A DNA stretch of 64,000 nucleotides from contig CAWGAA010000001.1 in NCBI GenBank assembly GCA_963820525.1, forward strand, positions 768,001-832,000, written 5' to 3'. The translations under genes and the position numbers were made by a program. Origin of the DNA: an uncultured Spirochaetota bacterium. Lineage in GTDB: Bacteria; Spirochaetota; Spirochaetia; SZUA-6; Fen-1364. The notes beneath the pieces were generated by a model. That model ran no database searches and was not told where the DNA came from. It was given only the letters and a program-made list of their open reading frames with translations. This document shows positions 5,466 to 54,729 of the stretch, in pieces (within the stretch, counting starts at the first letter, position 1; each line of letters begins with the position of its first letter).

Positions 5466-6551
5466 CCTGAATTCAACCTCGAAGTGCAACGATTCTTATT
5501 TTTCATGATACACCTCCTGGGGCGTTCTGTAGCCGTGCCGTTTTCTAGGCCTTGAGTTTAGGCTAAAGGCAATCTGCTCGCATAGAGCTTGAGTGACATC
5601 CCTCATGCAGGTTTTCTTTGGAAGATACTGACGGATCAAACCGTTTAGGTTCTCGTTGCTGCCTCGCTCCCAGGAATGATAAGGCGTTGCAAAGTAGCAT
5701 TTCAGTTCGGAATGATCCTCCAGGGTCCTGTAGTCATGGAATTCTGTACCGTTGTCCAAGGTGAGTGTCTTGAAGTTGGCTACGTTCTCCCTAATAGCCG
5801 GCAGTGCTGCCTCTGTTACTGAGGCTGCTGTTCTTGAGCTCATTTTCCTTATGATAGCAAATCCCGACTTTCGTTCCACCAGAGTGAGGATGCAGTGATG
5901 AAGGTCCCTGCCCATGACGGTGTCGCCCTCCCAATGACCCAATTCTTTACGAGTTTCAACCTCTGGAGGCCTCGTTGAAATATGGCGTTTTCCTGGGAGA
6001 ATTCCTCTTGAATCCCTTGAATTGTAACGTTTTCGCCGCAGTTTCGGCATGATTCGAAGGTTCTTAAATAGCGTTCCTCCATGTTTCTTATCGTTCAGGA
6101 TGTACTTGTAGATGGTCTCGTGACTGATTGTGAATGATCCATTCTTCTTCTGGTAAGCAGATATCTGTTCAGGGCTCCATTTCTCTTTCAAAAGAACAGT
6201 TACTTGCTGCATTTGTTCTGGGCTGAAGCGCGAACCGCGCCTTTCACGTCGCCGTCTTGCAGTTGAATAGCTTTGGGCAAGCTCAGCTCGGTACCTCAAG
6301 TCATGGTTAGTTCGGTTTCGATGAAGTTCCCTGCTGATCGTGCTAGCTGAGCGACCTAGCTCACGTGCAATGTCAGCTTTAGATCTTCGGCTTACTAAAA
6401 AAGCTGTTATGGTGTATCTTTCTTCTCGAGAGAGTTGGTGATAGTTATTCATGTATGAATCCCCTTTCTTGGCGGAAAATGGAGGCATACAATAATATCT
6501 CAGCTCTCTCATTTTTAATCCATATCGTTGCGCTTACTATTTGAACCTGCG
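5466..6551 (-). mobile_element. IS30-family element copy 1, at attC R''
   Basis: Ends CCTGAATTCAA...TTGAACCTGCG; flanks AAA/AAA. Confidence 0.93.
5496..6452 (-). CDS. IS30 transposase
   Basis: GHWEGDTV, TLDNGTEF and WERGSNENLNGLIRQYLPK motifs; start placed after an SD-like AGAAAGGGG. Confidence 0.93.
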   Translation of the reverse strand: MNNYHQLSREERYTITAFLVSRRSKADIARELGRSASTISRELHRNRTNHDLRYRAELAQSYSTARRRRERRGSRFSPEQMQQVTVLLKEKWSPEQISAYQKKNGSFTISHETIYKYILNDKKHGGTLFKNLRIMPKLRRKRYNSRDSRGILPGKRHISTRPPEVETRKELGHWEGDTVMGRDLHHCILTLVERKSGFAIIRKMSSRTAASVTEAALPAIRENVANFKTLTLDNGTEFHDYRTLEDHSELKCYFATPYHSWERGSNENLNGLIRQYLPKKTCMRDVTQALCEQIAFSLNSRPRKRHGYRTPQEVYHEK

Positions 6552-8299
6552 AAATATAACAAGTCGTTGCAGCTGACCGCCTAGGCTACGCGTCGTTAGA
6601 AATAACTACGCTCGTTCAAGTATTTGTTCTTTCTTGATTCGGGGCGGCAGCTGAACTCCATGTTATATCCAATCAAATTTATGGTGATTAGCAATGAATT
6701 AAAGAATTATTAATTCAATAATATTGGAGAAGATGTTTTTCAATAGCTTCCTTTCACATGATGGCGTTGGCATTTGGCGGGAAGGTTGGCGGCGTTGTAC
6801 TACATTGCCTGCTTATCTTTAGCTTCAATTCATGGCACGTCACTTTGGCTTGTTATCACCGATTACATTCAACGGCTCAGATCAAGCTCTTTCAAATGAT
6901 TCGATAGATCTTTTCTGCTTTCCTCAACGCCATCATACCTGATGGATATAACATGCGGTTGGAGTTGTCCGCCTATGTCACGCTTCGTTACATTTTGTTT
7001 CATTTGCTAGGGTTCCTTCGGTTGATGATTCGGGGCGGCAACTCAACAGCGTCGTTATATTCACGCATATTGAAGATTCTTAGATAATTTCAGTATTAGT
7101 TCCCTGTATACGTATGCTTGAGTATTGCTATCCTAAAGGGCTTTTTTCCTATTTGAGTAATGTTGTGAGATTCACCTCTTTCATTTCTTTTCTTTCCTTT
7201 GCGCGGGCCCTGGTAGTCACTAGGTAAAAGCTCGCGCCACTCTTTTGGTGGCCTCTATTACCTTTTAACCTTGTTTTCTTTCGTTCAAGGTTGAAGTCTA
7301 GATTCAACCTGTTGCGGTCAGCTTTTTTCACTCTCTTATAGTTCTCTGCATCGGCCCGCGCTAGTCTCTTATGTTTCCGCGTAAATATAACAAGTCGTTG
7401 CAGCTGACCGCCTAGGCTACGCGTCGTTAGAAATAACTACGCTCGTTCAAGTATTTGTTCTTTCTTGATTCGGGGCGGCAGCTGAACTCCATGTTATCTC
7501 TATCTAGATTTATATTGGTTAGCAATGAAGTTAAGAATTATTAATTCAATAATCTTGGATAAGACGTTTTTCACTAGCTTGCTTTCCCATGATGGCGTTG
7601 GCTTTGCTCTGGAAGGATGGCGGTGTTGTACTAGGGTGCATGCTTATTTTTAGTTTCAATACTCTGCACATCACCTTGGCTTATTATCACCGATTGCATT
7701 CTACGGCTCGTATCAAGCTCTTTCAATTGATTCGCTAGATCTTTTCTGCTTTCCGCAACGCCATCATACTGGATAGAGATAACATGTCGTTGCAGCTGAC
7801 CGCCTAGGATACGCGTCATCACTGATAATTACGCGCGCTCAAGTATTTGTTTTTCCTATGCGGGGCGGCAGCTGAACTCTGTGTTATATCCAATCAAATT
7901 TATGATGATTAGAAATGATGTAAAGAATTATAATTCAATAATATTGGATAGGAGGTTTTTCAATAGATTGCTTTCCCATGATGGCGTTGACATTGCTCTG
8001 GAAGGATGGCGGTGTTGTACTACTTTTCATGCTTGTCTTTAGTTTCAATGCATGGTACGTCACCTTGGCTTATTATCACCGATTACATTCTACGGCTTGG
8101 ATCAAGCTCTTTCAATTGATTCGCTATATCTTTTCTGCTTTCCTCAACGCCATCATACTGGATGGATATAACATGCTGTTGGAGTTGACCGCCTAGGCTA
8201 CGCTTCGTTGCCATTGACTACGCGCGTTGAAGCAATTGTACTTGGATGATTCGGGGCGGCAACTCAACAGCGTCGTTAGCCTGCTTTAAGGATGAGAAA

Positions 8300-9133
8300 A
8301 TGAAAGTATTCATGACAGGAAATCGTGGATTCATTGGACAAATAGTTGAAAAAGAACTGCTTTCCTCTGGTTTTCAAGTGAAAGGTTATGATATTGAAGA
8401 TGATCAGGATGTTCTTGATTACGGGAAACTAGAACAAGAAATGTCTGGCTGTAAACTCGTTATTCATCTTGCATCTATCGAAACAGAACATGAAATTGAA
8501 ACAATGGATGTCAACTTATTAGGAACATGGAATGTTCTTCAAATCGCTAAACGGAATAATGTACAGAAAATAGTCTATATAAGTAGCGTAGATGCTCTTG
8601 GAGTATTTCAAGGAGAAGGGATACCCAAATATTTGCCTCTTGATGATGATTATCCTTGCCACCCGAGAGCTACATATTCTATATCAAAACTTCTTTCAGA
8701 GGAGATGTGCTATCATTATTTTCGTGCTACTGGAACTAGCATTATCATTCTCAGACCTCCAGGCGTTTGGAATAAAGAAACATACTCTGAAATAAAGACT
8801 TACCGTCAGATTAGGCCTGAATATGAATGGGATCCATATTGGGAATATGGGGCATTTATAGATGTTAGGGACCTGTCAAAAGCAATTGTATTATCACTTG
8901 ATGGTGAAATAAAGGGATTCCATAAACATCTTATTGCATCAGATGATATCACAACATCCGGAATGACAAGCATGGAATTGGTACATAAATTAATGCCTCA
9001 AGTTGAATGGCGTGGCAATGATGAATATGTAAAAGAACCATATAAATCATTATTGAATACAAATGCGATTAAGAAATTATTAAAATGGAGTCCGAAGTAT
9101 TCATGGAAATTGAGTGAAAAGAAAGCAGGCTAA
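8300..9133 (+). CDS. NAD-dependent epimerase/dehydratase (extended SDR)
   Basis: TGNRGFIG and YSISK motifs; stop codon lies inside the attC R'' box. Confidence 0.9.
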   Translation: MKVFMTGNRGFIGQIVEKELLSSGFQVKGYDIEDDQDVLDYGKLEQEMSGCKLVIHLASIETEHEIETMDVNLLGTWNVLQIAKRNNVQKIVYISSVDALGVFQGEGIPKYLPLDDDYPCHPRATYSISKLLSEEMCYHYFRATGTSIIILRPPGVWNKETYSEIKTYRQIRPEYEWDPYWEYGAFIDVRDLSKAIVLSLDGEIKGFHKHLIASDDITTSGMTSMELVHKLMPQVEWRGNDEYVKEPYKSLLNTNAIKKLLKWSPKYSWKLSEKKAG

Positions 9134-9688
9134 CATGCTGTTGGAGTTGACCGCCCAGGCTACGCGTCGTGACTATTAGCTACATGCGGTAAAGCCTGTT
9201 GTACTTGGATGATTCGGGGCGGCAACTCAACAGCGTCGTTACATCCACGCTAATAATTTCTTTGAGAGAATATTTTGCCTGTTCTGTTTTGAATTATTCA
9301 AAGCAAATAAAGAATTCGATTTAGCAATCTTGCAGGTTTTACTTTGGTGAATTCCTCTGATACTTTTGCACGGGCCATGTAAGTTCCCATTGGAACAGCT
9401 CGCGCCCATTAGCTGAAAGGGCATCATCAACTTTTAACATTATTTTCTTTCGATATGCCCGAATTCTATTATCAATCAACTAACCTTATTTTTTCTTCAT
9501 ATCGTGAAGCTTCTTTGCTGGCCCGCGCATATTGTTCTTTTTCCGCGTAGATGTAACATGCGGTTGGAGCAGACCGCTTGGACTACGCATCGTTACTTAT
9601 AGCTACGCGTGTTAAAACCAATTGTACCTGGATGATGCGGCGCGGCTGCTCAACCGCGTCGTTATGCCGTCTTGATGGAGGTGTCAAA

Positions 9689-10534
9689 GTGAGTGAGTAC
9701 TTCCTGCAAGTTGAATACTGGCCTCAAAAGCTGCCGAATGCGCATCGAGAGCTACTGCAAGGAATCATCAGGAACATTTCTGCACGTTCAGATCTACTAG
9801 GACTGGCCATCGGTGGTTCCTTCGTATCCGGAGAAATGGACGAGTATTCAGACCTGGGCCTAAAGGTTATCGCGGACGCAAAGGAATGGCAAGCGGTAAA
9901 CGAAGCTCGGAAGCAGATAGCCGCGTCCGTCGGCCCCTTGCTCGCTACATTCACGGCGGAGCATATTGGCGTTCCACAGATGCTCATATGCCTGTACGGC
10001 GAGCTTCCCATACATGTAGATCTGCACTTCATGGTTCCTGAGCAATTTGCTTCAAGGCCGGAGGATCCGGTGATACTGTGGGATCGCAATGGGATGTTGC
10101 ATGCCGTATTGTCCCACAGCAAACCATACTCAACGTCGGTGGACTGGCAGTGGATCGAAGATAGGTTTTGGACTTGGATACACTACGTAGCAACAAGAGT
10201 CGCACGGGGAGAATTGTTTGAAACGATTCGATTCCTGTCACTTATAGGAGAGAAAGTACTTGGGCCGATAGCTGTCGAGATCTCAGGTGGCAAGTCACAC
10301 GGACTACGTCGTTTTGAGCAGATTGCAGGCAAATACCTTGACCCAATGCGATCAACAGTCGTCTCTTACAATAGGGATGAGATGGTTCAAGCGCTTTTCA
10401 ACGTGGTGGATATCTACAGGTCCTTTCGGAAGAACCATGCGCCAGGTACCCTGAGAATTAACGAGAAAGCGGAAGAAGTAGTCATTCACTATCTTGAGAA
10501 CATATCAAGGCAAGTCGCTGCAGAGACGGCATAA
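9689..10534 (+). CDS. Nucleotidyltransferase (LinB/aminoglycoside adenylyltransferase-like)
   Basis: GGS...DEYSDLG motif and a helical C-terminal domain; GTG start after GGAGGTG. Confidence 0.75.
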   Translation: MSEYFLQVEYWPQKLPNAHRELLQGIIRNISARSDLLGLAIGGSFVSGEMDEYSDLGLKVIADAKEWQAVNEARKQIAASVGPLLATFTAEHIGVPQMLICLYGELPIHVDLHFMVPEQFASRPEDPVILWDRNGMLHAVLSHSKPYSTSVDWQWIEDRFWTWIHYVATRVARGELFETIRFLSLIGEKVLGPIAVEISGGKSHGLRRFEQIAGKYLDPMRSTVVSYNRDEMVQALFNVVDIYRSFRKNHAPGTLRINEKAEEVVIHYLENISRQVAAETA

Positions 10535-11225
10535 CATCTCGTTGCAGTTGACGCCTTAGGTGGTCTTCTGTTTCGAGGGACTGTCGTCGCCGGGGTTCGC
10601 TTCGCGCTGGTGAATCGGCGGCGCAACTGAACTCGGCGTTATATCCATCTAAATTTATATTGATTAGTGAAGAAGCATCGGATTATTAATTCGATAATAA
10701 TAAAAGACGTATTTCAATTGCCTATTTGCCTATGATGGCGTTGGCATTGCTCTGGAAGGATGGCTGTGTTGTACTACATTGCTTGCTTTTCTTTAGTTTC
10801 AGTACATGGCACGTCACCTCGGCTTGCCAACACCGATTGCATTCAACGGCTCGGATCAAGCTCCTTCAATTGATTAGATAGATCTTTTCTGCTTTCCTCA
10901 ACGCCATCATACTGGATGGATATAACATGCTGTTGGAGTTGTCCGCCTTGGCTACGCTTCGTTACTGATGCTACGCGCGCTTAAGCATTTGTACTTGGAT
11001 GATTCGGGGCGGCAACTCAACAGCGTCGTTACGCGGCTTTGATAGAATTATATAAGCATGAATGGAGAATGTCTCGAGTCTAATCTGGCAATGAAAGAAT
11101 GCGGGCTAGAAACAAACGGGTAAAAAGATTCAATCGAATCGACATTAGGGAAATATGAAACGTTGATGATTTGACTTTAATCGCGGGGTGGTGCACCATT
11201 AATTTCTTTCGGAGGAGGAGTAGTC

Positions 11226-11519
11226 ATGGTAAGAAGAATTCTGCTTATGAAAATGACAGACCAGGGAGCAAAGGACATCAAGGGAGCGCCTCAGCGAGTT
11301 GAACAGGCAATAGCTACCTTCGAAAAGATGGGTGGCAAGATAGTCGGCTTCTATCTTGTCACTGGAGAGTATGACTATATTGCCATTGGGGAAGCGCCGA
11401 CTGATGAGGTCGCCATGTCTTTCGCCATGGGGCTGAGCGCCCTGGGGAATGTCAGAACCGTATCAATCCAGGCATACACCAAGGAAGAGTTTGCTGGTAT
11501 GGTCAAGAAGCTACCGTAG
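11226..11519 (+). CDS. GYD domain protein
   Basis: 97 aa with GEYD motif; strong SD GGAGGAG. Confidence 0.85.
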   Translation: MVRRILLMKMTDQGAKDIKGAPQRVEQAIATFEKMGGKIVGFYLVTGEYDYIAIGEAPTDEVAMSFAMGLSALGNVRTVSIQAYTKEEFAGMVKKLP

Positions 11520-12257
11520 CCTAATAAAAAGTAGATGCTGGTGCACCACCAGACAAATACCCGGTATGGCCTTCATTCTATTTATGTCGACACTCATCAA
11601 GCATAGATTGTTTTCACAAGTGTGGAGGATCTATCCACAAATAAGCTAAATGCGAAATAGATTGTCTATATAAGAAATAAAAGAGCCGCGTAACAAGTCG
11701 TTGCAGTTGACGCCTTTGATTGTAGGTGGAACGGAATGTTGGCTTAGAAGAACCGCTAGGCTTGACTGAATCGGCGGCGCAACTGAACTCCATTTTACAT
11801 TCAACGCTAAGAATTCTTTTGTAGGAAGATTCCCTTTGTTCTTTTATTATTCCTCAAGACAAATGAAGACTATTCAATTTAGCTGTTTTTCATATTTTAC
11901 TTCGTTGAATTCTTGTTTTACTTTTGCGCGGGCCATGTAAGTTCCCATTGGAACAGCTCGCGCTCATTAGCTGAAAGGGCGTTATTAACCTTTCTGGAAT
12001 CGTATTCTTTCGCTATTGCTTGAATTCTATCATCAATCAACCAACCTTGTATTTCGTTCATATCTTAGACTTCTTTGTTGGCCCGCGCATATTGTTTTGT
12101 TTCCGCGTAAATGTAACATTCGGTTGGAGCAGACCGCTTGGACTACGCATCGTTGCTGATAGCTACGCGTGCTAAAACCAATTGTACCTGGATGATGCGG
12201 CGCGGCTGCTCAACCGCGTCGTTAGACGGCAAAAGTTTTAAATAATAGAGGTGCAAT

Positions 12258-12989
12258 ATGATTACTGAATTCCCTAAGAACATTCATGACAAGCTGAAAA
12301 CCTATGTCTACTTATATATTGATCCAAGAGATAATAGCATATTCTATGTAGGAAAAGGTGTCGGTAATCGTGCTTTTTCTCATCTAAAAGATTTTTCTGA
12401 AACATAAAAGTCTGAACGTATCCAAGAAATTACCCAACATGGCTCATGTCCAAGAATCGAAATATTAATCCACGGCCTTGATGATGAAACGGCAAAGAGG
12501 GTTGAAGCTTCGTTAATCGATTTGCTTGGAATTGATACTTTATTAAATCAAGTTAGAGGATACCAATCAAAAGAGTATGGCAGAATGTCACCAGAACAAT
12601 TAATCGCAGTCTATGACGTGGAAAAGGTTGAAATAGAAGAACCCTCGATACTTATAACTATCAATAAATCCTTTCACTACGGAATGCAGCCTATTGAACT
12701 ATATGATGCAACCAGATCAGCGTGGGTTATTGGTGAAAGGAAACGTGCCGCAAAATATGCATTAGCTGTCTATTCGGGAGTTGTTCAAGAAGTTTATGAA
12801 ATTAAGGATTGGTACCCATCACATTCTACTTTCAATACAAAAAACTATGAAGATGAAATTGAATCAAATGAGGATAGATGGGAATTTGTAGGAAAATTAG
12901 CTGACAATAAAATTAGAAATAAATATAAATTTAAAAATGTATCTGAATATGTTGGAGCTCAGAACCCTATAAAATATGTAAAATGCTAG
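12258..12989 (+). pseudogene. LEM-3-like GIY-YIG nuclease with an in-frame TAA at 12405
   Basis: [24 protein letters not shown]-terminus, in frame with the ORF at 12522-12989. Confidence 0.82.
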
Positions 12990-12997
12990 ATTTGCCG

Positions 12998-14083
12998 CCT
13001 GAATTCAACCTCGAAGTGCAACGATTCTTATTTTTCATGATACACCTCCTGGGGCGTTCTGTAGCCGTGCCGTTTTCTAGGCCTTGAGTTTAGGCTAAAG
13101 GCAATCTGCTCGCATAGAGCTTGAGTGACATCCCTCATGCAGGTTTTCTTTGGAAGATACTGACGGATCAAACCGTTTAGGTTCTCGTTGCTGCCTCGCT
13201 CCCAGGAATGATAAGGCGTTGCAAAGTAGCATTTCAGTTCGGAATGATCCTCCAGGGTCCTGTAGTCATGGAATTCTGTACCGTTGTCCAAGGTGAGTGT
13301 CTTGAAGTTGGCTACGTTCTCCCTAATAGCCGGCAGTGCTGCCTCTGTTACTGAGGCTGCTGTTCTTGAGCTCATTTTCCTTATGATAGCAAATCCCGAC
13401 TTTCGTTCCACCAGAGTGAGGATGCAGTGATGAAGGTCCCTGCCCATGACGGTGTCGCCCTCCCAATGACCCAATTCTTTACGAGTTTCAACCTCTGGAG
13501 GCCTCGTTGAAATATGGCGTTTTCCTGGGAGAATTCCTCTTGAATCCCTTGAATTGTAACGTTTTCGCCGCAGTTTCGGCATGATTCGAAGGTTCTTAAA
13601 TAGCGTTCCTCCATGTTTCTTATCGTTCAGGATGTACTTGTAGATGGTCTCGTGACTGATTGTGAATGATCCATTCTTCTTCTGGTAAGCAGATATCTGT
13701 TCAGGGCTCCATTTCTCTTTCAAAAGAACAGTTACTTGCTGCATTTGTTCTGGGCTGAAGCGCGAACCGCGCCTTTCACGTCGCCGTCTTGCAGTTGAAT
13801 AGCTTTGGGCAAGCTCAGCTCGGTACCTCAAGTCATGGTTAGTTCGGTTTCGATGAAGTTCCCTGCTGATCGTGCTAGCTGAGCGACCTAGCTCACGTGC
13901 AATGTCAGCTTTAGATCTTCGGCTTACTAAAAAAGCTGTTATGGTGTATCTTTCTTCTCGAGAGAGTTGGTGATAGTTATTCATGTATGAATCCCCTTTC
14001 TTGGCGGAAAATGGAGGCATACAATAATATCTCAGCTCTCTCATTTTTAATCCATATCGTTGCGCTTACTATTTGAACCTGCG
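12998..14083 (-). mobile_element. IS30 copy 2, at attC R''
   Basis: Same ends as copy 1; flanks CCG/CCG. Confidence 0.93.
13028..13984 (-). CDS. IS30 transposase
   Basis: Protein identical to copy 1. Confidence 0.93.
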   Translation of the reverse strand: MNNYHQLSREERYTITAFLVSRRSKADIARELGRSASTISRELHRNRTNHDLRYRAELAQSYSTARRRRERRGSRFSPEQMQQVTVLLKEKWSPEQISAYQKKNGSFTISHETIYKYILNDKKHGGTLFKNLRIMPKLRRKRYNSRDSRGILPGKRHISTRPPEVETRKELGHWEGDTVMGRDLHHCILTLVERKSGFAIIRKMSSRTAASVTEAALPAIRENVANFKTLTLDNGTEFHDYRTLEDHSELKCYFATPYHSWERGSNENLNGLIRQYLPKKTCMRDVTQALCEQIAFSLNSRPRKRHGYRTPQEVYHEK

Positions 14084-46236: not shown

Positions 46237-47628
46237 ATGCAAACCACTTCTGCCAGTGCCAAGCGCCAACCCGCTCTGATTCCCAGGTCTATGCGCCCGA
46301 CCATCTCCATCGCGGAGGACCACAGGCTGGTCCAAATGACCGACACCCTGGACTGGACAGAAATGGAGGAGCAAGCCCAGCAGATACGATCCGCCAAGCT
46401 CAAGAACGCCGCTGGGCGGCCGCCGCACCTGCGCGCCTTGCTGGGAGCTATGCTGCTGATGGCCACCCGAAAGCTGACATACCGGGAGGCCGAGGACTTG
46501 ATCTGCTACTACGCCCCAGCGCGCTACTTGTGCGGGCTGACCGAAACGGAGTGGACCCCGGACTTCACCACCATCCAGGACTTCACCGAACTGATGGGCG
46601 AGCAGGGGATCAAGCTCATCAATCAATGCGTGGTGCAAATGGCGGTGAAACAAAAGTTGGCAGATCCCAAGACACTGGTGGCCGACACCACAGCGCAGGA
46701 AGCGGCGATCCCCTATCCCAACGAGATGGGGCTCATGGCCGGCTTTCTGACCTCGGTGGCTGCCGCAACCCGAAAAGTTGGCCGAGCGCTGAAGGGATTC
46801 GTGCAGGAGACGGTGAGTCAATTCGAGGCGGCCAAGAAGAAGGGGCGAGAGTACCGCCTGTTCGCCAAGACCAAGGAGAGCAAGGATCGGGTGATGGGGC
46901 AGATGATCGCCATCGTCAAGAAGCTCAACGAGCATCTGAGCAAGGCGCTGGGCGCCCCTGCCGCACAGTGGGAAAAGCTACGCAAGCATGCAATTGTGGC
47001 CAAAAGCAAGCTGGTTCAGTTGCAGGAAACGATGAGCAAACTGATCCCGCAGATCCGCTACTGGATTCGCACGGGCTGCGTGGCCAGCGGCAAGATCATC
47101 AGCCTGCATATCCCGCAGCTCTACAGCATCGTACGCGGCAAAGTGGGCAAATCGGTGGAGTTTGGGCTGAGCTGGGGCATCAGGCGACTGGCGGGGGGGT
47201 ACCTGCTGGCCACGCTGGCCCCGAATCGCCGCGAGTTACAGGACACGAAGTTCGCGGTGCGAGCGGTCAAAGACCACATCGCGCTCTTTGGCAAGGCGCC
47301 GCTGGCTTATGCCTACGACCGTGGTGGATACAGCGCGGAGAATGTCTCCACCTTGAAGAAGTTGGGGGTCAAGGATGTGGGACTGGCCCCCCGTGGACGT
47401 ACGCAGTGGTCGGTAAGCGGGCCGGTGCGCGACCGGCTGGTCAGAGAGAGGGCAATGGTGGAGGCGGGAATCGGCACCATCAAGAGCCCGAGATACGGGT
47501 TCAATCGTCCAGCTGCTCGTTCGGAGGCCATGATGGGAGCGTGTGGGCAGCGCGCTGTGTTGGGATTCAACACCAACAAGCTGATCCGCGAACTTGCCGG
47601 GCGAAAGGGGATGACGCTGAACGGCTAA
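46237..47628 (+). CDS. DDE transposase (IS5/ISNCY-like)
   Basis: GRPP, PDFTTI, ADTT, GKVGKSVEFG, YDRGG and RAMVEAGIG motifs. Confidence 0.85.
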   Translation: MQTTSASAKRQPALIPRSMRPTISIAEDHRLVQMTDTLDWTEMEEQAQQIRSAKLKNAAGRPPHLRALLGAMLLMATRKLTYREAEDLICYYAPARYLCGLTETEWTPDFTTIQDFTELMGEQGIKLINQCVVQMAVKQKLADPKTLVADTTAQEAAIPYPNEMGLMAGFLTSVAAATRKVGRALKGFVQETVSQFEAAKKKGREYRLFAKTKESKDRVMGQMIAIVKKLNEHLSKALGAPAAQWEKLRKHAIVAKSKLVQLQETMSKLIPQIRYWIRTGCVASGKIISLHIPQLYSIVRGKVGKSVEFGLSWGIRRLAGGYLLATLAPNRRELQDTKFAVRAVKDHIALFGKAPLAYAYDRGGYSAENVSTLKKLGVKDVGLAPRGRTQWSVSGPVRDRLVRERAMVEAGIGTIKSPRYGFNRPAARSEAMMGACGQRAVLGFNTNKLIRELAGRKGMTLNG

Positions 47629-47970
47629 CGGAATACGGGACGCCTGGTCACGAGACTGACAGTGCACCAGCGGGGTACGCACACAAGACACACAGCGCAC
47701 CGGAAGGCGCGACATAGGTCCGCGGCCCGTCGAACACCGAGCCAACGGGCGCCTGAATTACCCGACAAACTGTAGCTATAGCTACGCTCATTGAAGCCTT
47801 TGTACTTGGATGATTCGGGGCGGCAACTCAACAGCGTCGTTATCTTGCCATAGTAAATACCCAGTTGTGCATTTTTCATGCCATTGCATTTGTTTTAAGA
47901 ATTCATCACAACATTAAGCATGATTACCATATGTTGACACTGTGCGCACAATGGGGTATATTCCTTATTG

Positions 47971-48249
47971 ATGCAGTTCGCCTTTGACAAGGAGAAGAAT
48001 GACCTTCTTTATAAACGGCGTGGGGTAACTTTTCCCATGGTAATTGAGGCGATTGCAGATAAGGGAATTCTATTGAATTTTGATCACCCAAATCAATTGA
48101 AATATCCAAACCAAAAGGTACTTGTTGTTGATTTGGAAGGATATGCATACTGCGTACCTTATATTATTCAAGGAACTACTTGGTTCTTGAAAACGATCTA
48201 TCCAAGCAGACGTTTCAAGTACCTAATCGAAGGAGAAACCAATGGATAG
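47971..48249 (+). CDS. BrnT-like toxin
   Basis: F.FD.EKN..L...RGVTF...FLKTIYPSRR. Confidence 0.8.
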   Translation: MQFAFDKEKNDLLYKRRGVTFPMVIEAIADKGILLNFDHPNQLKYPNQKVLVVDLEGYAYCVPYIIQGTTWFLKTIYPSRRFKYLIEGETNG

Positions 48250-48544
48250 ATATAATCCGAAATACATTGACCGTGAAGAGAAAGATCTCATGCAAGACAT
48301 TGACAAAATAGATCTCCGTAAGGTTAGAAAGCCGACCCAAAAGGTACAAGGACAACTCAGGAGAGCTGCAAAGAGGCACCTAGAAAAAGAATTGAAAATG
48401 AATATTAGAATTGACCCCTATGAATTATCAAAGATTAAAGAAAAGGCAGAAATGGAAGGATTAAAATACCAAAGCCTCGTAAAGAGCGTACTACACAAAT
48501 ACATTACTGGCCAATTGATTGAAAAAGGGAAAAAAGCTGTATAG
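48242..48544 (+). CDS. RHH/CopG-like antitoxin
   Basis: MNIRI..IKEKA..EGL.YQSLV.SVLHKY. Confidence 0.8.
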   Translation: MDRYNPKYIDREEKDLMQDIDKIDLRKVRKPTQKVQGQLRRAAKRHLEKELKMNIRIDPYELSKIKEKAEMEGLKYQSLVKSVLHKYITGQLIEKGKKAV

Positions 48545-50155
48545 GAATTATGGCTAAAATCTTATTATTAAAATAGATAAATGGCAAGATAACATGCGGT
48601 TGGAGTTGTCCGCCTAGGCTACGTTCATCAACAGTAAGCTAAGTTTGCTAGGGTCCTTCGGTTGCTGATTCGGGGCGGCAACTCAACCGCGTCGTTATCT
48701 CCATCTAGATTTATATTGATTAGCAATGAAGTTAAGAATTATTAATTAAATAATCTTGGATAAGACGCTTTTCAATTTCATGTTTGCCCATGATGGCGTT
48801 GGCCTTTCTCTGGAAGGATGGCGGTGTTGTACTAGGTTGCACGCTTGTTTTTAGTTTCAATGCATGGCACGTCACCTTGGCTTATTATCACCGATTACAT
48901 TCAACGGCTCTAATCAAGCTCTTTCAATTGATTCGCTAGATCTTTTCTGCTTTCCTCAACGCCATCATACTGGATGGAGATAACATGTCGTTGCAGCTGA
49001 CCGCCCAAGCTACGCGTCGTCACTTGAAACTATGCGTGCTCAGCTATTTCCTTTTTTTGAGGCGGGGCGGCAGCTGAACTCCTTGTTATATCCATCTAGA
49101 TTTATATTGATTAGCGAATAGACAACGAATTATTAATTCAATAATAGAAGATAAGACGCTTTTCAATAGCTTTTTGCCCATGATGGCGTTGACATTGCTC
49201 CGTAAGGATGGCGGTGTTGTACTACATTGCTTGCTTTTCTTTAGTTTCAATACATGGCACGTCACCTCGTCTTGCCAACACCGATTGCATTCAACGGCTC
49301 GGATCAAGCTCCTTCAATTGATTCGATAGACCTTTTCTGCTTTCCTCAACGCCATCATACTGGATGGATATAACATGCTGTTGGAGTTGTCCGCCTAGGC
49401 TACGCGTCGTTACTTATAGCTACGTTTCCTAGGGTTCCTTCGGTTGCTGATTCGGGGCGGCAACTCAACAGCGTCGTTATATCCAATCTAGATTTATATT
49501 GATTATCGAATAGGCAACGAATTAGTAATTCAATAAAAAGAGATAATACGTGTTTCAATAGCTTGTTTAACCATGATGGCGTTGGCATTGCTCTGGAAGG
49601 ATGGCGGTGTTGTACTAATGTTGCTTGCTTGCTCTTAGTTTCAATACACTGCACGTCACCGTGGCTTAATGGTCAACGATTTCATTATAGGGCTCGGATC
49701 AAGCTCTTTCTCTTGAAACAACAACTCTTTTCTGTTGTCCTCAACGCCATCATACTGGATGGATATAACATGCTGTTGGAGTTGTCCGCCTAGGCTACGC
49801 GTCGTTACTTATAGCTACGTTTGCTAGGGTTCCTTCGGTTGCTGATTCGGGGCGGCAACTCAACAGCGTCGTTATCTCCATCTAGATTTATATTGATTAG
49901 CAATGAAGTTAAGAATTATTAATTAAATAATCTTGGATAAGACGCTTTTCAATTTCATGTTTGCCCATGATGGCGTTGGCCTTTCTCTGGAAGGATGGCG
50001 GTGTTGTACTAGGTTGCACGCTTGTTTTTAGTTTCAATGCATGGCACGTCACCTTGGCTTATTATCACCGATTACATTCAACGGCTCGAATCAAGCTCTT
50101 TCAATTGATTCGCTAGATCTTTTCTGCTTTCCTCAACGCCATCATACTGGATGGA

Positions 50156-51241
50156 CCTGAATTCAACCTCGAAGTGCAACGATTCTTATTTTTCATGATA
50201 CACCTCCTGGGGCGTTCTGTAGCCGTGCCGTTTTCTAGGCCTTGAGTTTAGGCTAAAGGCAATCTGCTCGCATAGAGCTTGAGTGACATCCCTCATGCAG
50301 GTTTTCTTTGGAAGATACTGACGGATCAAACCGTTTAGGTTCTCGTTGCTGCCTCGCTCCCAGGAATGATAAGGCGTTGCAAAGTAGCATTTCAGTTCGG
50401 AATGATCCTCCAGGGTCCTGTAGTCATGGAATTCTGTACCGTTGTCCAAGGTGAGTGTCTTGAAGTTGGCTACGTTCTCCCTAATAGCCGGCAGTGCTGC
50501 CTCTGTTACTGAGGCTGCTGTTCTTGAGCTCATTTTCCTTATGATAGCAAATCCCGACTTTCGTTCCACCAGAGTGAGGATGCAGTGATGAAGGTCCCTG
50601 CCCATGACGGTGTCGCCCTCCCAATGACCCAATTCTTTACGAGTTTCAACCTCTGGAGGCCTCGTTGAAATATGGCGTTTTCCTGGGAGAATTCCTCTTG
50701 AATCCCTTGAATTGTAACGTTTTCGCCGCAGTTTCGGCATGATTCGAAGGTTCTTAAATAGCGTTCCTCCATGTTTCTTATCGTTCAGGATGTACTTGTA
50801 GATGGTCTCGTGACTGATTGTGAATGATCCATTCTTCTTCTGGTAAGCAGATATCTGTTCAGGGCTCCATTTCTCTTTCAAAAGAACAGTTACTTGCTGC
50901 ATTTGTTCTGGGCTGAAGCGCGAACCGCGCCTTTCACGTCGCCGTCTTGCAGTTGAATAGCTTTGGGCAAGCTCAGCTCGGTACCTCAAGTCATGGTTAG
51001 TTCGGTTTCGATGAAGTTCCCTGCTGATCGTGCTAGCTGAGCGACCTAGCTCACGTGCAATGTCAGCTTTAGATCTTCGGCTTACTAAAAAAGCTGTTAT
51101 GGTGTATCTTTCTTCTCGAGAGAGTTGGTGATAGTTATTCATGTATGAATCCCCTTTCTTGGCGGAAAATGGAGGCATACAATAATATCTCAGCTCTCTC
51201 ATTTTTAATCCATATCGTTGCGCTTACTATTTGAACCTGCG
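50156..51241 (-). mobile_element. IS30 copy 7, at attC R'' (non-matching flanks)
   Basis: Flanks GGA / GAG. Confidence 0.93.
50186..51142 (-). CDS. IS30 transposase
   Basis: Protein identical to copy 1. Confidence 0.93.
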   Translation of the reverse strand: MNNYHQLSREERYTITAFLVSRRSKADIARELGRSASTISRELHRNRTNHDLRYRAELAQSYSTARRRRERRGSRFSPEQMQQVTVLLKEKWSPEQISAYQKKNGSFTISHETIYKYILNDKKHGGTLFKNLRIMPKLRRKRYNSRDSRGILPGKRHISTRPPEVETRKELGHWEGDTVMGRDLHHCILTLVERKSGFAIIRKMSSRTAASVTEAALPAIRENVANFKTLTLDNGTEFHDYRTLEDHSELKCYFATPYHSWERGSNENLNGLIRQYLPKKTCMRDVTQALCEQIAFSLNSRPRKRHGYRTPQEVYHEK

Positions 51242-51492
51242 GAGTCTAACATGCTGTTGGAGTTGACCGCCTAGGCTACGCTTCGCTACATATAGCTACG
51301 CGCGTTGAAGTCTTTGTACTTGGATGATTCGGGGCGGCAACTCAACAGCGTCGTTATACGGGTCTATTCTTTGGGGCAAGGCTTATTCTGATTAGGGAAC
51401 TTCTGGTTTCATTTGTGATCAAAGCCTGATCTACCTGCTTACATTAAAATGATCCAATTGACAATCTTGAAAACACTCCACTATTATATGCT

Positions 51493-51753
51493 ATGCCTAC
51501 AATATGTCGTTTTTATGGCATCCTCATCCAGATGTATTTTGATGATCATAGTCCACCCCATTTTCATGTAGTATATAACGAATTCAAAGCCGTCATAGGC
51601 ATCAATGATTTTAGTATATTAGAAGGGGACCTACCGCCGAAAGCTCTTGGCTTAGTTATGGAATGGGCTAGAATACATAAGATTGAATTGCTGAAGGATT
51701 GGGAACTTGCTAAGAAGAAGCAATCCCTATTACCTATTGTTCCTTTAGAATAG
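51493..51753 (+). CDS. DUF4160 protein (putative toxin)
   Basis: MPTI.RFYGI.I.MY..DH.PPHFH. Confidence 0.88.
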   Translation: MPTICRFYGILIQMYFDDHSPPHFHVVYNEFKAVIGINDFSILEGDLPPKALGLVMEWARIHKIELLKDWELAKKKQSLLPIVPLE

Positions 51754-51762
51754 GAGTCTGTC

Positions 51763-52041
51763 ATGTATTTCGACATCGTTGATGCTGAATATATTAGAGA
51801 TTATGAAATCAAACTAAAATTCGCAGACGCTTCGGAAGGAACCGTTGATTTGTCATCCTATATAGATAAGGATACAGTTTTTAGAGCATTTCAAGATCTT
51901 GGCTATTTCAGAAACTTTCAAATAGAATATGGAACATTAGTCTGGGGACAAGGAGAGCTCGACCTTGCACCAGAGACTCTTTATACAATAGCAACTGGAA
52001 AACCGGTTAAGTTTCTTTCACAAAACAGGGCTATTTCATAA
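51763..52041 (+). CDS. DUF2442 protein (putative antitoxin)
   Basis: L.F.D...G.VD...W..ELDLAPETLY. Confidence 0.85.
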   Translation: MYFDIVDAEYIRDYEIKLKFADASEGTVDLSSYIDKDTVFRAFQDLGYFRNFQIEYGTLVWGQGELDLAPETLYTIATGKPVKFLSQNRAIS

Positions 52042-52261
52042 ACTTATTTATTCAAGCTGCCTATTCTATCTGAACGAAATATCTGTTAAAGAGACCCGTA
52101 TAACATGCTGTTGTAGCAGACCGCTTGGACTACGCATCGTTACTGATAGCTACGCGTGTTAAAACCAATTGTACCTGGATGATGCGGCGCGGCTGCTCAA
52201 CCGCGTCGTTAGGCTCCTAATTCATTACTGCTTCAGCCTTCATATAAAAGGAGGTCAGGCT

Positions 52262-53383
52262 ATGTTAAATAAGATTATCAAAACAATGTTGTTGCTCTCA
52301 GTGGTTTCGTTTAATGGGTGCATTTCAGATACGAAAGCAATTATTTCAGAGGAAACCAATCCAAGTTTAAATGTAAGCCTCCATGGCTTTAACTTTGGTG
52401 CTTGGGAAAAGAGAGGTTGGGATTCATCATTACCCGTGGACGAGGGATTGCAGTTCGCGGTTGATGAAGGGGCTAATTTCCTTGCACTGGATTGGCCTGT
52501 TTGCTTTGAAGATAATGGTCATATTGTCCCAGATGGAGGAGATTTGCACCCACCATTCACTGACATTGAATCAGTGATTGAAAAAGCAAAAGCTTTGCGA
52601 CTCTATGTCATGTTGAAACCACACGTGACCATGACCGATATCGCACAAAATAGAAACTATTATAATACAGATATAAAAGTATTCCTGCCCGCCAATTTTT
52701 TCCCTGACTGGAAAGATTACTTGGTAGCGCTTGCGGACACGGCGCAGATAATGAACGTTGACGCGATATGCATTGGTACTGAAATAAACTGCCTCGATTG
52801 GATGTATCGGACAGAATGGCTAGATATAATTTCTACACTCAGGCTCTCTTATTCAGGGGACTTGACATATGATGCTGTGTTTACAGTTTGGTACGAGGTA
52901 AAGGGCATCAACAATGTTGTTTTTTGGGACGCATTAGATTTTATTGGCTGTTCTCTCTATGTTCCGATAACTCGAGACGACAACGCTAGCGTTACAGATA
53001 TAATGAAGGGCTGGACTAACAATCAGGTTGGCACAATAAAGAATATAGTGAAATACTTACAAGACATTTCGAAGCGTTATAATAAACAGATCATGGCATT
53101 AGAGGGAGGATATCAGAGCGTTTCCGGAGGACTTTTTAATGTAAATGACCCACCTAATGAAAACAGGGTCGCCAATAATGACCTTCAATTTCGTGGCCTT
53201 TCTGCATATCTTGAAGTATTGTATAAGAACAAGGGTACTTGGCTAAAAGGCATTAGCTTGTGGCAGATTTCTCCGGTTACAATGACTCCAATCGAGCTAA
53301 CTAAGATGTGGTATACACAAGAATTCACAGTGTATAAAAAGCCTGCTGCTGATGTCGTTAAACAGTATTACACAATGCAATGA
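52262..53383 (+). CDS. Glycoside hydrolase family 113-like lipoprotein
   Basis: FNGC lipobox; VMLKPH, IGTE, FWDALDFIG and LEGGY motifs. Confidence 0.78.
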   Translation: MLNKIIKTMLLLSVVSFNGCISDTKAIISEETNPSLNVSLHGFNFGAWEKRGWDSSLPVDEGLQFAVDEGANFLALDWPVCFEDNGHIVPDGGDLHPPFTDIESVIEKAKALRLYVMLKPHVTMTDIAQNRNYYNTDIKVFLPANFFPDWKDYLVALADTAQIMNVDAICIGTEINCLDWMYRTEWLDIISTLRLSYSGDLTYDAVFTVWYEVKGINNVVFWDALDFIGCSLYVPITRDDNASVTDIMKGWTNNQVGTIKNIVKYLQDISKRYNKQIMALEGGYQSVSGGLFNVNDPPNENRVANNDLQFRGLSAYLEVLYKNKGTWLKGISLWQISPVTMTPIELTKMWYTQEFTVYKKPAADVVKQYYTMQ

Positions 53384-53457
53384 TGTTTTAAAGACCGCCA
53401 TATCACAAAGCATTAATGATTATTGATGTCCGAATACAAACAAAACTCAATTAGGAG

Positions 53458-54543
53458 CCTGAATTCAACCTCGAAGTGCAACGATTCTTATTTTTCATGA
53501 TACACCTCCTGGGGCGTTCTGTAGCCGTGCCGTTTTCTAGGCCTTGAGTTTAGGCTAAAGGCAATCTGCTCGCATAGAGCTTGAGTGACATCCCTCATGC
53601 AGGTTTTCTTTGGAAGATACTGACGGATCAAACCGTTTAGGTTCTCGTTGCTGCCTCGCTCCCAGGAATGATAAGGCGTTGCAAAGTAGCATTTCAGTTC
53701 GGAATGATCCTCCAGGGTCCTGTAGTCATGGAATTCTGTACCGTTGTCCAAGGTGAGTGTCTTGAAGTTGGCTACGTTCTCCCTAATAGCCGGCAGTGCT
53801 GCCTCTGTTACTGAGGCTGCTGTTCTTGAGCTCATTTTCCTTATGATAGCAAATCCCGACTTTCGTTCCACCAGAGTGAGGATGCAGTGATGAAGGTCCC
53901 TGCCCATGACGGTGTCGCCCTCCCAATGACCCAATTCTTTACGAGTTTCAACCTCTGGAGGCCTCGTTGAAATATGGCGTTTTCCTGGGAGAATTCCTCT
54001 TGAATCCCTTGAATTGTAACGTTTTCGCCGCAGTTTCGGCATGATTCGAAGGTTCTTAAATAGCGTTCCTCCATGTTTCTTATCGTTCAGGATGTACTTG
54101 TAGATGGTCTCGTGACTGATTGTGAATGATCCATTCTTCTTCTGGTAAGCAGATATCTGTTCAGGGCTCCATTTCTCTTTCAAAAGAACAGTTACTTGCT
54201 GCATTTGTTCTGGGCTGAAGCGCGAACCGCGCCTTTCACGTCGCCGTCTTGCAGTTGAATAGCTTTGGGCAAGCTCAGCTCGGTACCTCAAGTCATGGTT
54301 AGTTCGGTTTCGATGAAGTTCCCTGCTGATCGTGCTAGCTGAGCGACCTAGCTCACGTGCAATGTCAGCTTTAGATCTTCGGCTTACTAAAAAAGCTGTT
54401 ATGGTGTATCTTTCTTCTCGAGAGAGTTGGTGATAGTTATTCATGTATGAATCCCCTTTCTTGGCGGAAAATGGAGGCATACAATAATATCTCAGCTCTC
54501 TCATTTTTAATCCATATCGTTGCGCTTACTATTTGAACCTGCG
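53458..54543 (-). mobile_element. IS30 copy 8, at attC R'' (flanks GAG/AAG)
   Basis: Same ends as copy 1. Confidence 0.93.
53488..54444 (-). CDS. IS30 transposase
   Basis: Protein identical to copy 1. Confidence 0.93.
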   Translation of the reverse strand: MNNYHQLSREERYTITAFLVSRRSKADIARELGRSASTISRELHRNRTNHDLRYRAELAQSYSTARRRRERRGSRFSPEQMQQVTVLLKEKWSPEQISAYQKKNGSFTISHETIYKYILNDKKHGGTLFKNLRIMPKLRRKRYNSRDSRGILPGKRHISTRPPEVETRKELGHWEGDTVMGRDLHHCILTLVERKSGFAIIRKMSSRTAASVTEAALPAIRENVANFKTLTLDNGTEFHDYRTLEDHSELKCYFATPYHSWERGSNENLNGLIRQYLPKKTCMRDVTQALCEQIAFSLNSRPRKRHGYRTPQEVYHEK

Positions 54544-54729
54544 AAGCCTAACATGCTGTTGGAGCAGACCGCTGGGACTACGCATCGTTACTGATTCTTG
54601 CGCGTGTTAAAGCAAATGTACCTATATGATTCGGCGCGGCTGCTCAACCGCGTCGTTATATCTTCATATATTAATGTCTGATCTCGTAGAAGTAATTTTT
54701 ACTAATCCAATAATGAACAGAGGTATCAT

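Follow-up and report, generated by a model that had tools for sequence, protein, structure and literature searches.

IS30-family insertion sequences at the attC sites of a large sedentary integron in an uncultured Spirochaetota bacterium

Introduction

A stretch of 64,000 nucleotides from an uncultured Spirochaetota bacterium (the window) contains eight copies of one insertion sequence (IS) inside an integron cassette array, each lying beside an attC site. The locus raises the question of whether the attC site is selected by the transposase or whether such a pattern arises in another way, by selection or by the machinery of the integron itself. The copies very probably belong to an active or very recently active IS30-family element, of a lineage whose DDE transposase would select attC as its target.

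Results

The element and its family

Repeat search and exact extension delimited eight copies of a 1086-bp element with a mutual identity of 100% in the window (Table 1), each encoding a transposase of 318/338 amino acids on the minus strand. A ninth copy with two mismatches and a CTG duplication was found by blastn of the genome 5 kb to the left of the window. The transposase matched the NCBIfam profile NF033563 (transpos_IS30) at 294.3 bits (cut-off 80) over its full length (1-267 of 267), and Pfam domains HTH_38 (24-66), HTH_32 (85-137) and rve (189-280) were assigned to the 338-aa ORF. The catalytic residues D177, D233 and E267 (318-aa form), with 33 residues between the second D and E, are invariant across a 10-sequence alignment. 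An N-terminal helix-turn-helix, a DDE (rve-type) core and a D-E spacing of 33 are the signature of the IS30 family, whose members are normally about 1.0-1.25 kb long and possess a single ORF, imperfect inverted repeats of 20-30 bp and a target duplication of 2-3 bp. The present element agrees with this in its size, one long ORF, imperfect terminal inverted repeats (17/28 positions identical) and 3-bp target duplication. No IS110 match to the transposase was obtained in Pfam or NCBIfam. DNA search of a plasmid collection with the IS gave no close relative, just stretches of 59-88 nt.

Table 1. Positions of the IS copies and of the cassette array in the window
Feature	Positions	Strand	Transposase ORF	Flanking triplets (left/right)	attC
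IS copy 1	5466..6551	-	5496-6452/6512 (-)	AAA/AAA, duplication	6556-6667, abutted by IRL end
IS copy 2	12998..14083	-		CCG/CCG, duplication	14088-14202
IS copy 3	22630..23715	-		CAA/CAA, duplication	23720-23831
IS copy 4	26284..27369	-		CCA/CCA, duplication	27374-27484
IS copy 5	29885..30970	-		AGA/AGA, duplication	30975-31087
IS copy 6	40904..41989	-		GGG/GGG, duplication	41994-42107
IS copy 7	50156..51241	-		GGA/GAG, unmatched	51246-51358
IS copy 8	53458..54543	-		GAG/AAG, unmatched	54548-54661
Array, part within window	130..56375	+			58 hits: 53 full, 5 partial

The host integron

Downstream of intI (C1:682092-683030, minus strand; TIGR02249 score 410.7 bits, cut-off 265), the array occupies C1:683766 to C1:824375 and forms a sedentary chromosomal integron of about 140 kb, or about 2.8% of the 5.05-Mb genome. 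The attC profile gave 177 hits in the whole array, all on the plus strand. In these sites the inverted cores, R'' (RYYYAAC) and R' (GTTRRRY), close an imperfect hairpin whose R''-L'' arm carries the extra bases, and the stems fold with two single-base bulges on the 5' arm. Cassettes are heavily duplicated, one family of about 390 bp being present at about 70 copies, and long cassette ORFs are mostly on the plus strand. Since the attC top strand and most of these ORFs are on the plus strand, with intI upstream on the minus strand, the IS genes are antisense to the array, as the initial annotation had stated. The same array houses other IS types (IS110-type, a DDE_Tnp_1_4 type at CTAG sites, IS1595-type and DUF772-type), which occupy different positions in attC or within cassettes.

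Insertion geometry and target duplications

All eight window copies were claimed to share one position and one orientation, each being followed by 3 nt and then by nnTAAC of an attC, and this holds. It extends to the whole genome, in which 9/9 copies found by blastn, the ninth included, lie 5 nt upstream of an attC TAAC in a single orientation, with none outside attC. As to chance, the array that holds all nine takes up about 2.8% of the genome, and their position agrees to the nucleotide. At each of the eight window copies, nhmmer places the start of a full attC 5 nt past the IS end. The 7-bp R'' core begins with the third duplicated base; the IS end is therefore always 5 nt from TAAC, and attC is complete again after insertion. 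In keeping with the earlier claim that attC is left intact, occupied sites score 73-117 bits with the attC profile, within the range of unoccupied ones, and folding of their stem arms gives -13.6 to -21.4 kcal/mol. Each IS consequently separates a cassette ORF from the attC that belongs to it and runs antisense to that cassette.

Perfect 3-bp target duplications flank 7/9 genomic copies, and every triplet is distinct. A different duplicated triplet had been reported for each window copy; the six that were listed are indeed perfect duplications, whereas copies 7 and 8 have none. For three copies, IS-free paralogous cassettes in the same genome give the exact pre-insertion sequence (a slash follows the target triplet): the paralogs of copy 1 read ..CGTAAA/TATAAC, and that of copy 2 (C1:692005-692204, 100% identical) reads ..TTGCCG/TCTAAC. 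Contigs from four runs (three studies) jump 1089 = 1086 + 3 bases, from 5462 to 6552, the three bases fitting either side. Such an empty-form joint is not proof of excision, because paralogous cassettes of the same organism could yield it. The IS had low or no contig cover in runs X5 and X6, and this cover was not counted as evidence.

The left flank of copy 7 comes from the 390-bp cassette family, whose IS-free members read GGA/nATAAC, so its right flank is foreign. Copy 8 has on its left the triplet that copy 7 has on its right, an indication that flanks were exchanged between identical IS copies. The flanks of copies 7 and 8 were thus probably exchanged by IS-IS recombination. Right-flank paralogs from which the exchange could be rebuilt were sought for both, and neither has one.

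Site preference

Treating the 173 full attCs as independent, though many cassettes are paralogs, attCs with a CTAAC core were occupied in 5/20 cases against 4/153 for the others (Fisher p = 0.0012), and one L'' type in 7/48 against 2/125 (p = 0.002). The target consensus of 30 sites has Y at position 4 in 30/30 and TAAC at positions 6-9 in 29-30/30, followed by T17 in 28, A20 in 28, G21 in 27 and G24 in 29. The IRR-side flanks, inspected by eye and not tallied, showed no common motif. To see whether attC mimics an IS end, the IRR and IRL tips of 16 elements were compared with their own targets. The best offset gave 7.8-8.3/26 identities against 6.6 +/- 2.2 for shuffled sequences, a slight excess that lies mostly in the first four bases and comes from rows related to one another.

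Related elements in other genomes

In a genome of another genus (G014), 6/6 copies with an IRL end abut attC, at 68-77% nucleotide identity to the present element; five have the same offset and one lies one nucleotide further. For other phyla, attC sites were called by our own motif and hairpin test (a fixed-register motif and a constrained fold with shuffles) and not by a curated attC model. Other hairpin detectors were dropped because random sites scored high or obvious attCs were missed, the short R-box helix lying outside the minimum-energy fold. Among named-genome loci, NNN-nn-TAAC stands beside IRL in 17 (one with CAAC, one offset by 1), with a hairpin z-score <= -2 in 12 of them. At seven further loci the motif is on the IRR side, with hairpin z from -7.2 to -10.1.

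In the transposase tree all attC-associated rows fall into one clade of 33 rows (support 94/91). Here 17 + 6 rows are at attC, four are elsewhere and six have unreadable flanks, giving 23/27 readable rows at attC, against 0/12 in the sister clade. The present element groups with those of G014 at support 100/99 within the 33-row clade. One nested subclade uses the other end of attC (R') and keeps the 3+2 spacing. The range of the proposed group would take in the sediment bacterium with the 140-kb integron, Betaproteobacteria, Gemmatimonadota, Acidobacteriota and Vibrio (ISVa6 family).

Fourteen full copies of an ISVa6-family element in V. campbellii are distributed over ten Vibrio-type attCs, one degenerate attC and three other places. 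Targeting of attC is thus not absolute, off-attC positions being taken by 4/27 readable clade members and 3/14 V. campbellii copies. Matching triplets among the relatives were found only at loci L040, L042, L043, L045, L054, L057 and L061 and at 3/10 attC-adjacent V. campbellii copies; most relatives in draft or metagenome assemblies lack them, and draft assemblies can misjoin repeat flanks. In one case, an ISVa6-family-loaded cassette lies in a 1836-bp segment that a V. campbellii plasmid shares at 95.2% with a 2-Mb replicon. The shared stretch begins where the preceding attC starts and reaches about 52 nt into the attC of the cassette itself; these edges are unlike the expected IntI crossover points, and the case speaks neither for nor against IntI-mediated movement.

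Discussion

Origin of the pattern

That the IS is attC-specific, as the initial annotation had proposed, is strongly supported by comparative evidence, from the nine genomic copies at attC and from diverged relatives that dock alike in other genera and phyla. An array might instead be a tolerated "safe haven", where insertion is untargeted and selection keeps the harmless insertions between ORF and attC. Arrays do gather IS, as the several other types in this one demonstrate. However, these types sit at different positions, selection cannot yield single-nucleotide precision and one orientation in all nine copies, and the same offset recurs in other genera and phyla, which makes this explanation very improbable. 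It is equally hard to credit that the integron machinery spread the element, IntI having duplicated an IS-bearing cassette or IS+attC unit or integrated a circular IS as a pseudo-cassette. The heavy duplication of cassettes would fit such a process, as would the circles that IS30-family elements form. Yet the left flanks are nine different cassette sequences with differing triplets, IS-free paralogs pass directly from the same flank to attC, and the loops differ between the attCs downstream of the copies; the differing triplets and left flanks and the paralogs available for three copies also strongly support the earlier claim of independent insertions. Furthermore, IntI recombines at G/TT of R' and leaves no target duplication, while these insertions lie at the R'' end with 3-bp duplications, and there is no attC-profile hit inside the IS.

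Targeting could also be real and depend on structure instead of sequence, the base of the attC hairpin or cruciform being preferred and TAAC merely marking it. In favour of this, the staggered cut coincides exactly with the foot of the R''/R' stem, the nested subclade docks at the mirror position on the R' end with unchanged spacing, and the spacer and L'' sequences of the targets vary widely between taxa. Against this, each lineage picks one end and one orientation, which calls for an asymmetric signal, albeit one that extrahelical bases could provide; the occupancy bias to CTAAC cores and to one L'' type points to sequence reading, and DDE transposases of the IS30 family are expected to act on duplex targets. 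A purely structural preference is therefore considered rather unlikely.

In the favoured explanation, the element inserts with its IRL end (upstream of the transposase gene) towards the R'' end of attC and makes a staggered cut of 3 bp. Transposition would follow the copy-out/paste-in route usual for the family, via a circle with abutted ends. The transposase may read a single asymmetric half-site, namely the R''-L'' arm of attC; its N-terminal helix-turn-helix region is the probable reader, and the arm could be contacted as duplex DNA or where the extruded hairpin has its base. The nine near-identical direct repeats could then recombine homologously, and the exchanged flanks of two copies would be accounted for in this way. 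IntI should still accept IS-loaded cassettes as substrates, and from the geometry the IS would be expected to hitchhike on cassette movement driven by IntI.

Wider meaning

Judging from the integron literature searched, the attC-targeting IS30-family group is apparently new and undescribed. The present element lies in the 33-row clade and 3+2 nt from the TAAC/GTTA core, the two features proposed to define an "IS30-attC" clade. A broader view is favoured by a narrow margin: that these are widespread, undescribed DDE transposons which read attC by protein-DNA contact, switched from R'' to R' in one sublineage and can be carried between genomes by IntI. As attC is restored on insertion, the R'' type comes to lie inside cassettes and the R' type at the head of the next cassette; residence in cassettes would let the elements travel between genomes by the recombination of the integron itself. 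Some of their targets look like the attCs that resistance cassettes carry in mobile integrons.

If this is true, IS30-attC elements would be a third kind of attC-specialised mobile element, built on an ordinary DDE transposase, and attC would be open to recognition by an enzyme of the classical cut/copy-and-paste sort. It would then be directly testable how a transposase that acts on duplexes locates a site conserved mostly in structure, and the two sublineages choosing opposite attC ends provide a natural experiment for the determinants of specificity. Such insertion would help to explain the commonness of transposase genes among cassette-encoded proteins, let the IS spread horizontally as cargo of cassettes, and might serve as a site-specific insertion tool. 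Large arrays would also gain identical direct repeats that drive deletions and rearrangements; direct repeats of this sort reshaped the V. cholerae array, according to passages of PMC11023631.

Comparison with Known Systems

The element resembles E. coli IS30 in its profile family, DD(33)E motif, N-terminal helix-turn-helix, size, single ORF and 2-3-bp duplications. The IS30 family has marked target preferences, those of E. coli IS30 being a palindromic hot-spot consensus and its own inverted repeats or IS ends. These targets are not attC, whereas the present element has one conserved half-site, which is an integron recombination site. The closest named relative is ISVa6 (51-52% amino acid identity, about 48% diverged), which falls in the same tree clade. 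The name ISVa6 comes from ISfinder and was submitted together with the V. anguillarum NB10 genome; in the report on that genome, the passages on ISVa6 and on integrons draw no connection between them (PMC4572688). The pJM1 copy is truncated at the IRL end and uninformative.

In the integron literature searched, attC targeting is ascribed to IS1111-attC elements and group IIC-attC introns only, and no mention of it for IS30 was found, in agreement with the initial annotation. IS1111-attC elements are likewise IS that are site- and orientation-specific at attC and spread within cassette arrays, but they insert inside attC, whereas the IS30 element lies at its outer edge and leaves it whole. They have a DEDD transposase without a DDE motif, no comparable terminal inverted repeats and no 3-bp duplication. 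The single-copy IS110-family element in the window splits an attC between ..TTGGAG and TTGAC... Targeting by IS110/IS1111 elements is described as RNA-guided (PMC11187229), while nothing points to RNA guidance for the IS30 element here. Group IIC-attC introns (PMC3001079 and PMC7923331) are also attC-specialised and lie in a single orientation in cassette arrays; they are, however, retroelements with a ribozyme and a reverse transcriptase that home into one DNA strand of attC, unrelated in mechanism and genes. The IS30-attC element is attC-specific and in this behaviour IS1111-attC-like, but it is no member of that group.

The element and its transposase

The repeated element is 1086 bp long, and repeat search with base-by-base extension found its eight copies in the window identical to the last base. 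Whole-genome blastn raises the genome total to nine copies, the ninth lying 5 kb to the left. Each copy carries a single long ORF, which encodes 338 aa when read from its first ATG and 318 aa when read from the start common to its relatives. The protein scores 294 bits against the NCBIfam IS30 equivalog (cut-off 80) and contains the Pfam domains HTH_38, HTH_32 and rve. Its catalytic residues are D177, D233 and E267; the second D and the E are 33 residues apart, a spacing characteristic of the IS30 family. The two terminal inverted repeats agree in 17 of 28 positions. On every feature examined, the element is an IS30-family insertion sequence.

Coordinates of the elements, integron features and groups of loci (strand of IS copies: that of the transposase ORF)
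Feature	Location	Strand	Remark
intI	C1:682092-683030	-	TIGR02249, 410.7 bits (cut-off 265)
attC array	C1:683766-824375	+	177 profile hits
IS copy 1	window 5466-6551	-	AAA duplication
IS copy 2	window 12998-14083	-	CCG duplication
IS copy 3	window 22630-23715	-	CAA duplication
IS copy 4	window 26284-27369	-	CCA duplication
IS copy 5	window 29885-30970	-	AGA duplication
IS copy 6	window 40904-41989	-	GGG duplication
IS copy 7	window 50156-51241	-	GGA left, GAG right
IS copy 8	window 53458-54543	-	GAG left, AAG right
IS copy 9	C1:762077-763162		2 mismatches, CTG duplication
Second intI	C1:1954228-1955157		448.6 bits
attC hits downstream of second intI	C1:1956606-1963776		at least five, same type
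~390-bp cassette family, examples	window 1436-3175, 48589-49876		
IS110-family element	window 17773-19511	-	ORF 17788-19194
IS1595-type transposase	window 20075-21022	-	
DDE_Tnp_1_4 IS	window 34996-36459	-	
DDE_Tnp_1_4 IS	window 37210-38673	+	
DDE_Tnp_1_4 IS, third copy	C1:697208-698927		
DDE_Tnp_1_4 IS relative	window 58790-60253		79% identity
Half attCs at DDE_Tnp_1_4 IS	window 34739-34792, 37132-37180, 38902-38989		
DUF772 insertion	window 45638-47750		2.1 kb
attC halves at DUF772 insertion	window 45577-45637, 47751-47844		profile positions 2-61 and 25-114
Clade rows not at attC	L028, L035, L041, L048		
IRR-type loci	L050, L053-L057, L061		Rubrivivax and allied genomes
V. campbellii ISVa6-family loci	L104, L107-L120, L122, L123		NZ_CP050482.1 and NZ_CP050465.1

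Integron array

The genome comprises 5.05 Mb in four contigs, and the window belongs to contig C1. A profile built from the nine IS-adjacent attCs detects 187 sites genome-wide, nearly all in one run on C1. This array, about 140 kb long, constitutes a sedentary chromosomal integron. It ends inside the window near position 56375, and its window portion includes 58 attC hits, of which 53 are full and 5 partial. The plus strand is taken as the top strand of the array because the attC hairpin has its two single-base bulges on the 5' arm of this strand, intI is upstream and divergent, and the long cassette ORFs are mostly on the plus strand. The IS thus adjoins the R'' end of attC, with its transposase gene antisense to the cassettes, as the initial annotation had proposed.

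A cassette family of about 390 bp, with some 70 copies, dominates the array, and all its cassettes end ..CATACTGGATGGA before attC. Such an approximately 70-fold amplification of one small cassette is unusually high. The same genome carries a second integron integrase gene with attC hits downstream, and a few further hits occur on contigs C2 and C3. The IS30 element was absent from the attCs of the second integron and from the C2 and C3 hits by whole-genome blastn.

Insertion geometry and attC integrity

Each of the eight window copies is followed by three bases and then nnTAAC, and the attC profile match begins 5 nt beyond each IS end. Exact extension bore out the single position and single orientation claimed from the sequence for all eight. 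The claim that every triplet is duplicated and different stood in part: the six listed triplets (copies 1-6) are perfect 3-bp duplications, and copies 7 and 8 have non-matching flanks. The remark that no copy occurs elsewhere in the window extends to the genome: all nine copies adjoin attCs of the ~140-kb array, in one orientation and at one offset, and whole-genome blastn found none outside it. The pattern named in the initial annotation as evidence against it, a majority of genomic copies at non-attC sites, is thus not what the genome shows. The element inserts with a 3-bp stagger, in a fixed orientation and at a constant spacing from the attC core.

The 7-bp R'' core begins with the third duplicated base and is therefore restored by the duplication. 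With the profile, occupied attCs reach 73-117 bits, inside the range of free attCs, and the folding energies of their arms are -13.6 to -21.4 kcal/mol; of 1000 random genomic positions, 97% yielded no candidate, and the lowest energy was -13.0. The attC is left intact, as had been suggested.

The independence of the insertions was likewise upheld, by the duplications, by differing cassette sequences to the left of the nine copies, and by IS-free paralogous cassettes in the same genome. Such paralogs exist for three copies at 97.5-100% identity over 200 nt, with the flank continuous with attC and the triplet present once (GTGTCTG/CCTAAC, CGTAAA/TATAAC and TTGCCG/TCTAAC, the slash marking the junction). 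Contigs from four public runs (three studies) join window position 5462 to 6552. This joint omits 1089 bases, that is 1086 + 3; the three letters fit either side, which gives the same footprint. It is no proof of excision, since empty paralogous cassettes occur in the organism itself.

On its left, copy 7 is flanked by a cassette of the ~70-member family. The IS-free members of this family read GGA/nATAAC, so the right flank of copy 7 (GAG TCTAAC) comes from another insertion. The GAG to the right of copy 7 is exactly the left triplet of copy 8, and flank exchange between identical direct repeats is the simplest reading.

Site preference and target consensus

Among the 173 full attCs, those with a CTAAC core are occupied in 5 of 20 cases vs 4 of 153 others (Fisher p = 0.0012), and those with one L''-arm type in 7 of 48 vs 2 of 125 (p = 0.002); both p-values overstate independence, many cassettes being paralogous. 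The CTAAC bias agrees in direction with the relatives, whose targets have a yCTAAC core almost universally. In 30 independent R''-type sites, numbered outward from the IS tip, positions 1-3 are variable (position 3 is G or A in 26), position 4 is Y in all 30, and positions 6-9 are TAAC in 29-30. Further conserved bases are T17 (28 sites), A20 (28), G21 (27) and G24 (29). The conserved stretch is the R''-L'' arm of attC. Inspection of the printed sequences by eye, with no tally, revealed no common motif in the flank on the far side of the IS, which suggests that the target is a single asymmetric half-site.

Related elements and their docking sites

A DNA match to the element was found in two of 60 related genomes. 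One of them, G014, is of another genus in the same family; two diverged elements at 67.9-77% nucleotide identity are present there, with four full copies and three fragments between them. All six places retaining the IRL end (upstream of the transposase gene) adjoin attC, five at the same offset and one a base further; matching triplets occur in two (ATG and AGC). The other, G007, contains just a 117-nt fragment at a contig end.

Protein search recovered 7996 relatives among 8000 scored candidates. The best 120 of these 7996 show 64-100% identity and lie mostly on contigs of ~1.1-1.5 kb, as expected since the element is a repeat. Both flanks were read at 80 loci from named genomes, with the IS tip set 16 nt outside a conserved inner motif; in many cases the assembly is a draft or a metagenome, where the flanks of a repeat may be joined wrongly. 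NNN-nn-TAAC lies outside IRL at 17 loci, one with CAAC and one offset by a base. Hosts are Betaproteobacteria (Uliginosibacterium, Viridibacterium, Rhodocyclaceae, Aquabacterium, Burkholderiales), Gammaproteobacteria (Saccharospirillum, Microbulbifer, Thermomonas), a Gemmatimonas MAG and a Thermoanaerobaculia MAG. In 12 of the 17, an attC-like hairpin extends to a downstream GTTA/GTTG with z <= -2 vs shuffles. In the others, one has z -1.7, two are at a contig end or unfolded, one is without a recognisable R', and in L027, the CAAC-core locus, the fold took the wrong R', though this attC and the one of L026 are homologous.

Outside IRR, the other IS end, the 3+2+TAAC spacing occurs at seven loci from Rubrivivax and allies, with hairpin z of -7.2 to -10.1. 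Matching triplets are present in L040, L042, L043, L045, L054, L057 and L061; L043 has TAAC in register with a weak hairpin (z -0.7) and is not counted as attC. Elements at <=44% identity, mostly from Bacteroidota and including eleven copies in one Ekhidna MAG (nine with readable IRL flank), showed no TAAC in register in the flanks read, and their duplications are ordinary 3-bp ones (L070, L072, L076).

In a plasmid collection, the closest named relatives are the 'IS30-like element ISVa6 family' and 'ISVvu6 family' (51-52% aa). In Vibrio campbellii, a plasmid copy adjoins a Vibrio-type attC with the offset unchanged. Another strain of this species has 14 full ISVa6-family copies on a 2.06-Mb replicon; ten show NNN-nn-TAAC of a Vibrio-type attC next to IRL (three with matching triplets), one is at a degenerate core, and three are elsewhere, one with a TAC duplication. 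An IS-loaded GNAT cassette is common to the 74-kb plasmid and this 2-Mb replicon (95.2% over 1836 bp).

Transposase phylogeny

A maximum-likelihood tree was built from 52 transposases. Eight loci were excluded for internal stops, and 24 more because they were partial matches, near-duplicates or frame-shifted. Every attC-associated row falls within one clade of 33 (support 94/91), composed of 17 rows of R''/IRL type, six of IRR type, six with unreadable flanks and four not at attC. In the sister clade of 18, none of the 12 readable rows is at attC. The tree shows the habit as inherited within a transposase clade. The initial proposal of an attC-specific IS30 is strongly supported and extends to a whole clade.

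The IRR type forms a nested subclade with 100/100 support, and three of its loci have AGG duplications. The bulged bases are on the hairpin arm distal to the IS, and the sequence read away from the IS fits the bottom-strand pattern of common attCs. At five of six loci, the distal attC end has the terminus of a long ORF no more than ~40 nt away, and this ORF runs antisense to the transposase gene. These features lend moderate support to a position immediately outside R', where the next cassette starts, and again antisense to the array; the grade is moderate since ORF calls are noisy in GC-rich DNA.

Mechanism and consequences

The element would move by the usual route of the IS30 family, its transposase probably binding the R''-L'' arm. 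The bias for one core and one L'' type seen in this genome speaks for recognition of duplex sequence. The transposase might instead recognise the foot of an extruded attC hairpin, which would account for insertion exactly at the stem base and for the mirror-image docking of the IRR-type subclade; this is considered the less likely variant. The IS30 family targets IS ends, and the IRR tip weakly resembles the R'' core; this likeness, if real, would suggest descent from such targeting.

Regional tolerance of the array combined with selection, with no targeting, cannot yield nucleotide precision and is contradicted. The same applies to spread of the copies by IntI, given that their flanks differ, IS-free sites exist, target duplications are present, and the position is R'' and not the R' crossover point. 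An R''-type IS lies within cassette boundaries, so that IntI excision would take it along. Hitchhiking on cassette movement, also raised by the initial annotation, is a plausible possibility.

With nine near-identical direct repeats inside 60 kb, the array offers ready substrates for deletions and rearrangements; copies 7 and 8 have the appearance of products of such events.

Other mobile elements of the array

An IS110-family element (DEDD_Tnp_IS110 + Transposase_20), present once, interrupts an attC, with ..CTGTTGGAG on one side and TTGACGCC.. on the other. The known IS1111-attC group behaves in this way, and the array thus hosts a known attC-specific IS type together with the IS30 type. An IS with a 487-aa DDE_Tnp_1_4 transposase has three copies, 99.8-100% identical and each flanked by CTAG; two are in inverted orientation at the same CTAG within two attCs, and relatives occur elsewhere. 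An insertion with DUF772 (transposase domain) and DUF6788 ORFs also lies within an attC, the two halves of which overlap in the profile. An IS1595-type transposase (DDE_Tnp_IS1595 + zinc ribbon) is located in an array cassette.

Comparison with known systems

Searches of full-text literature yielded no paper linking the IS30 family or ISVa6 to attC. The passages on ISVa6 and on integrons in the ISVa6 naming paper (PMC4572688) draw no connection between them; the V. anguillarum attC 5'-end consensus given there fits the 5' end of the V. campbellii attCs. IS30 and integrons are mentioned separately in a large survey of IS niches (PMC13548323). The IS1111 group alone is named in the passages on attC-targeting IS in PMC3971601, PMC11089894 and a Xanthomonas integron preprint (10.1101/2025.06.18.660453). 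A role of IS copies comparable to the rearrangements considered here is documented for the V. cholerae array in PMC11023631. Target-specific IS elements are known, as are attC-specific mobile elements from two other families.
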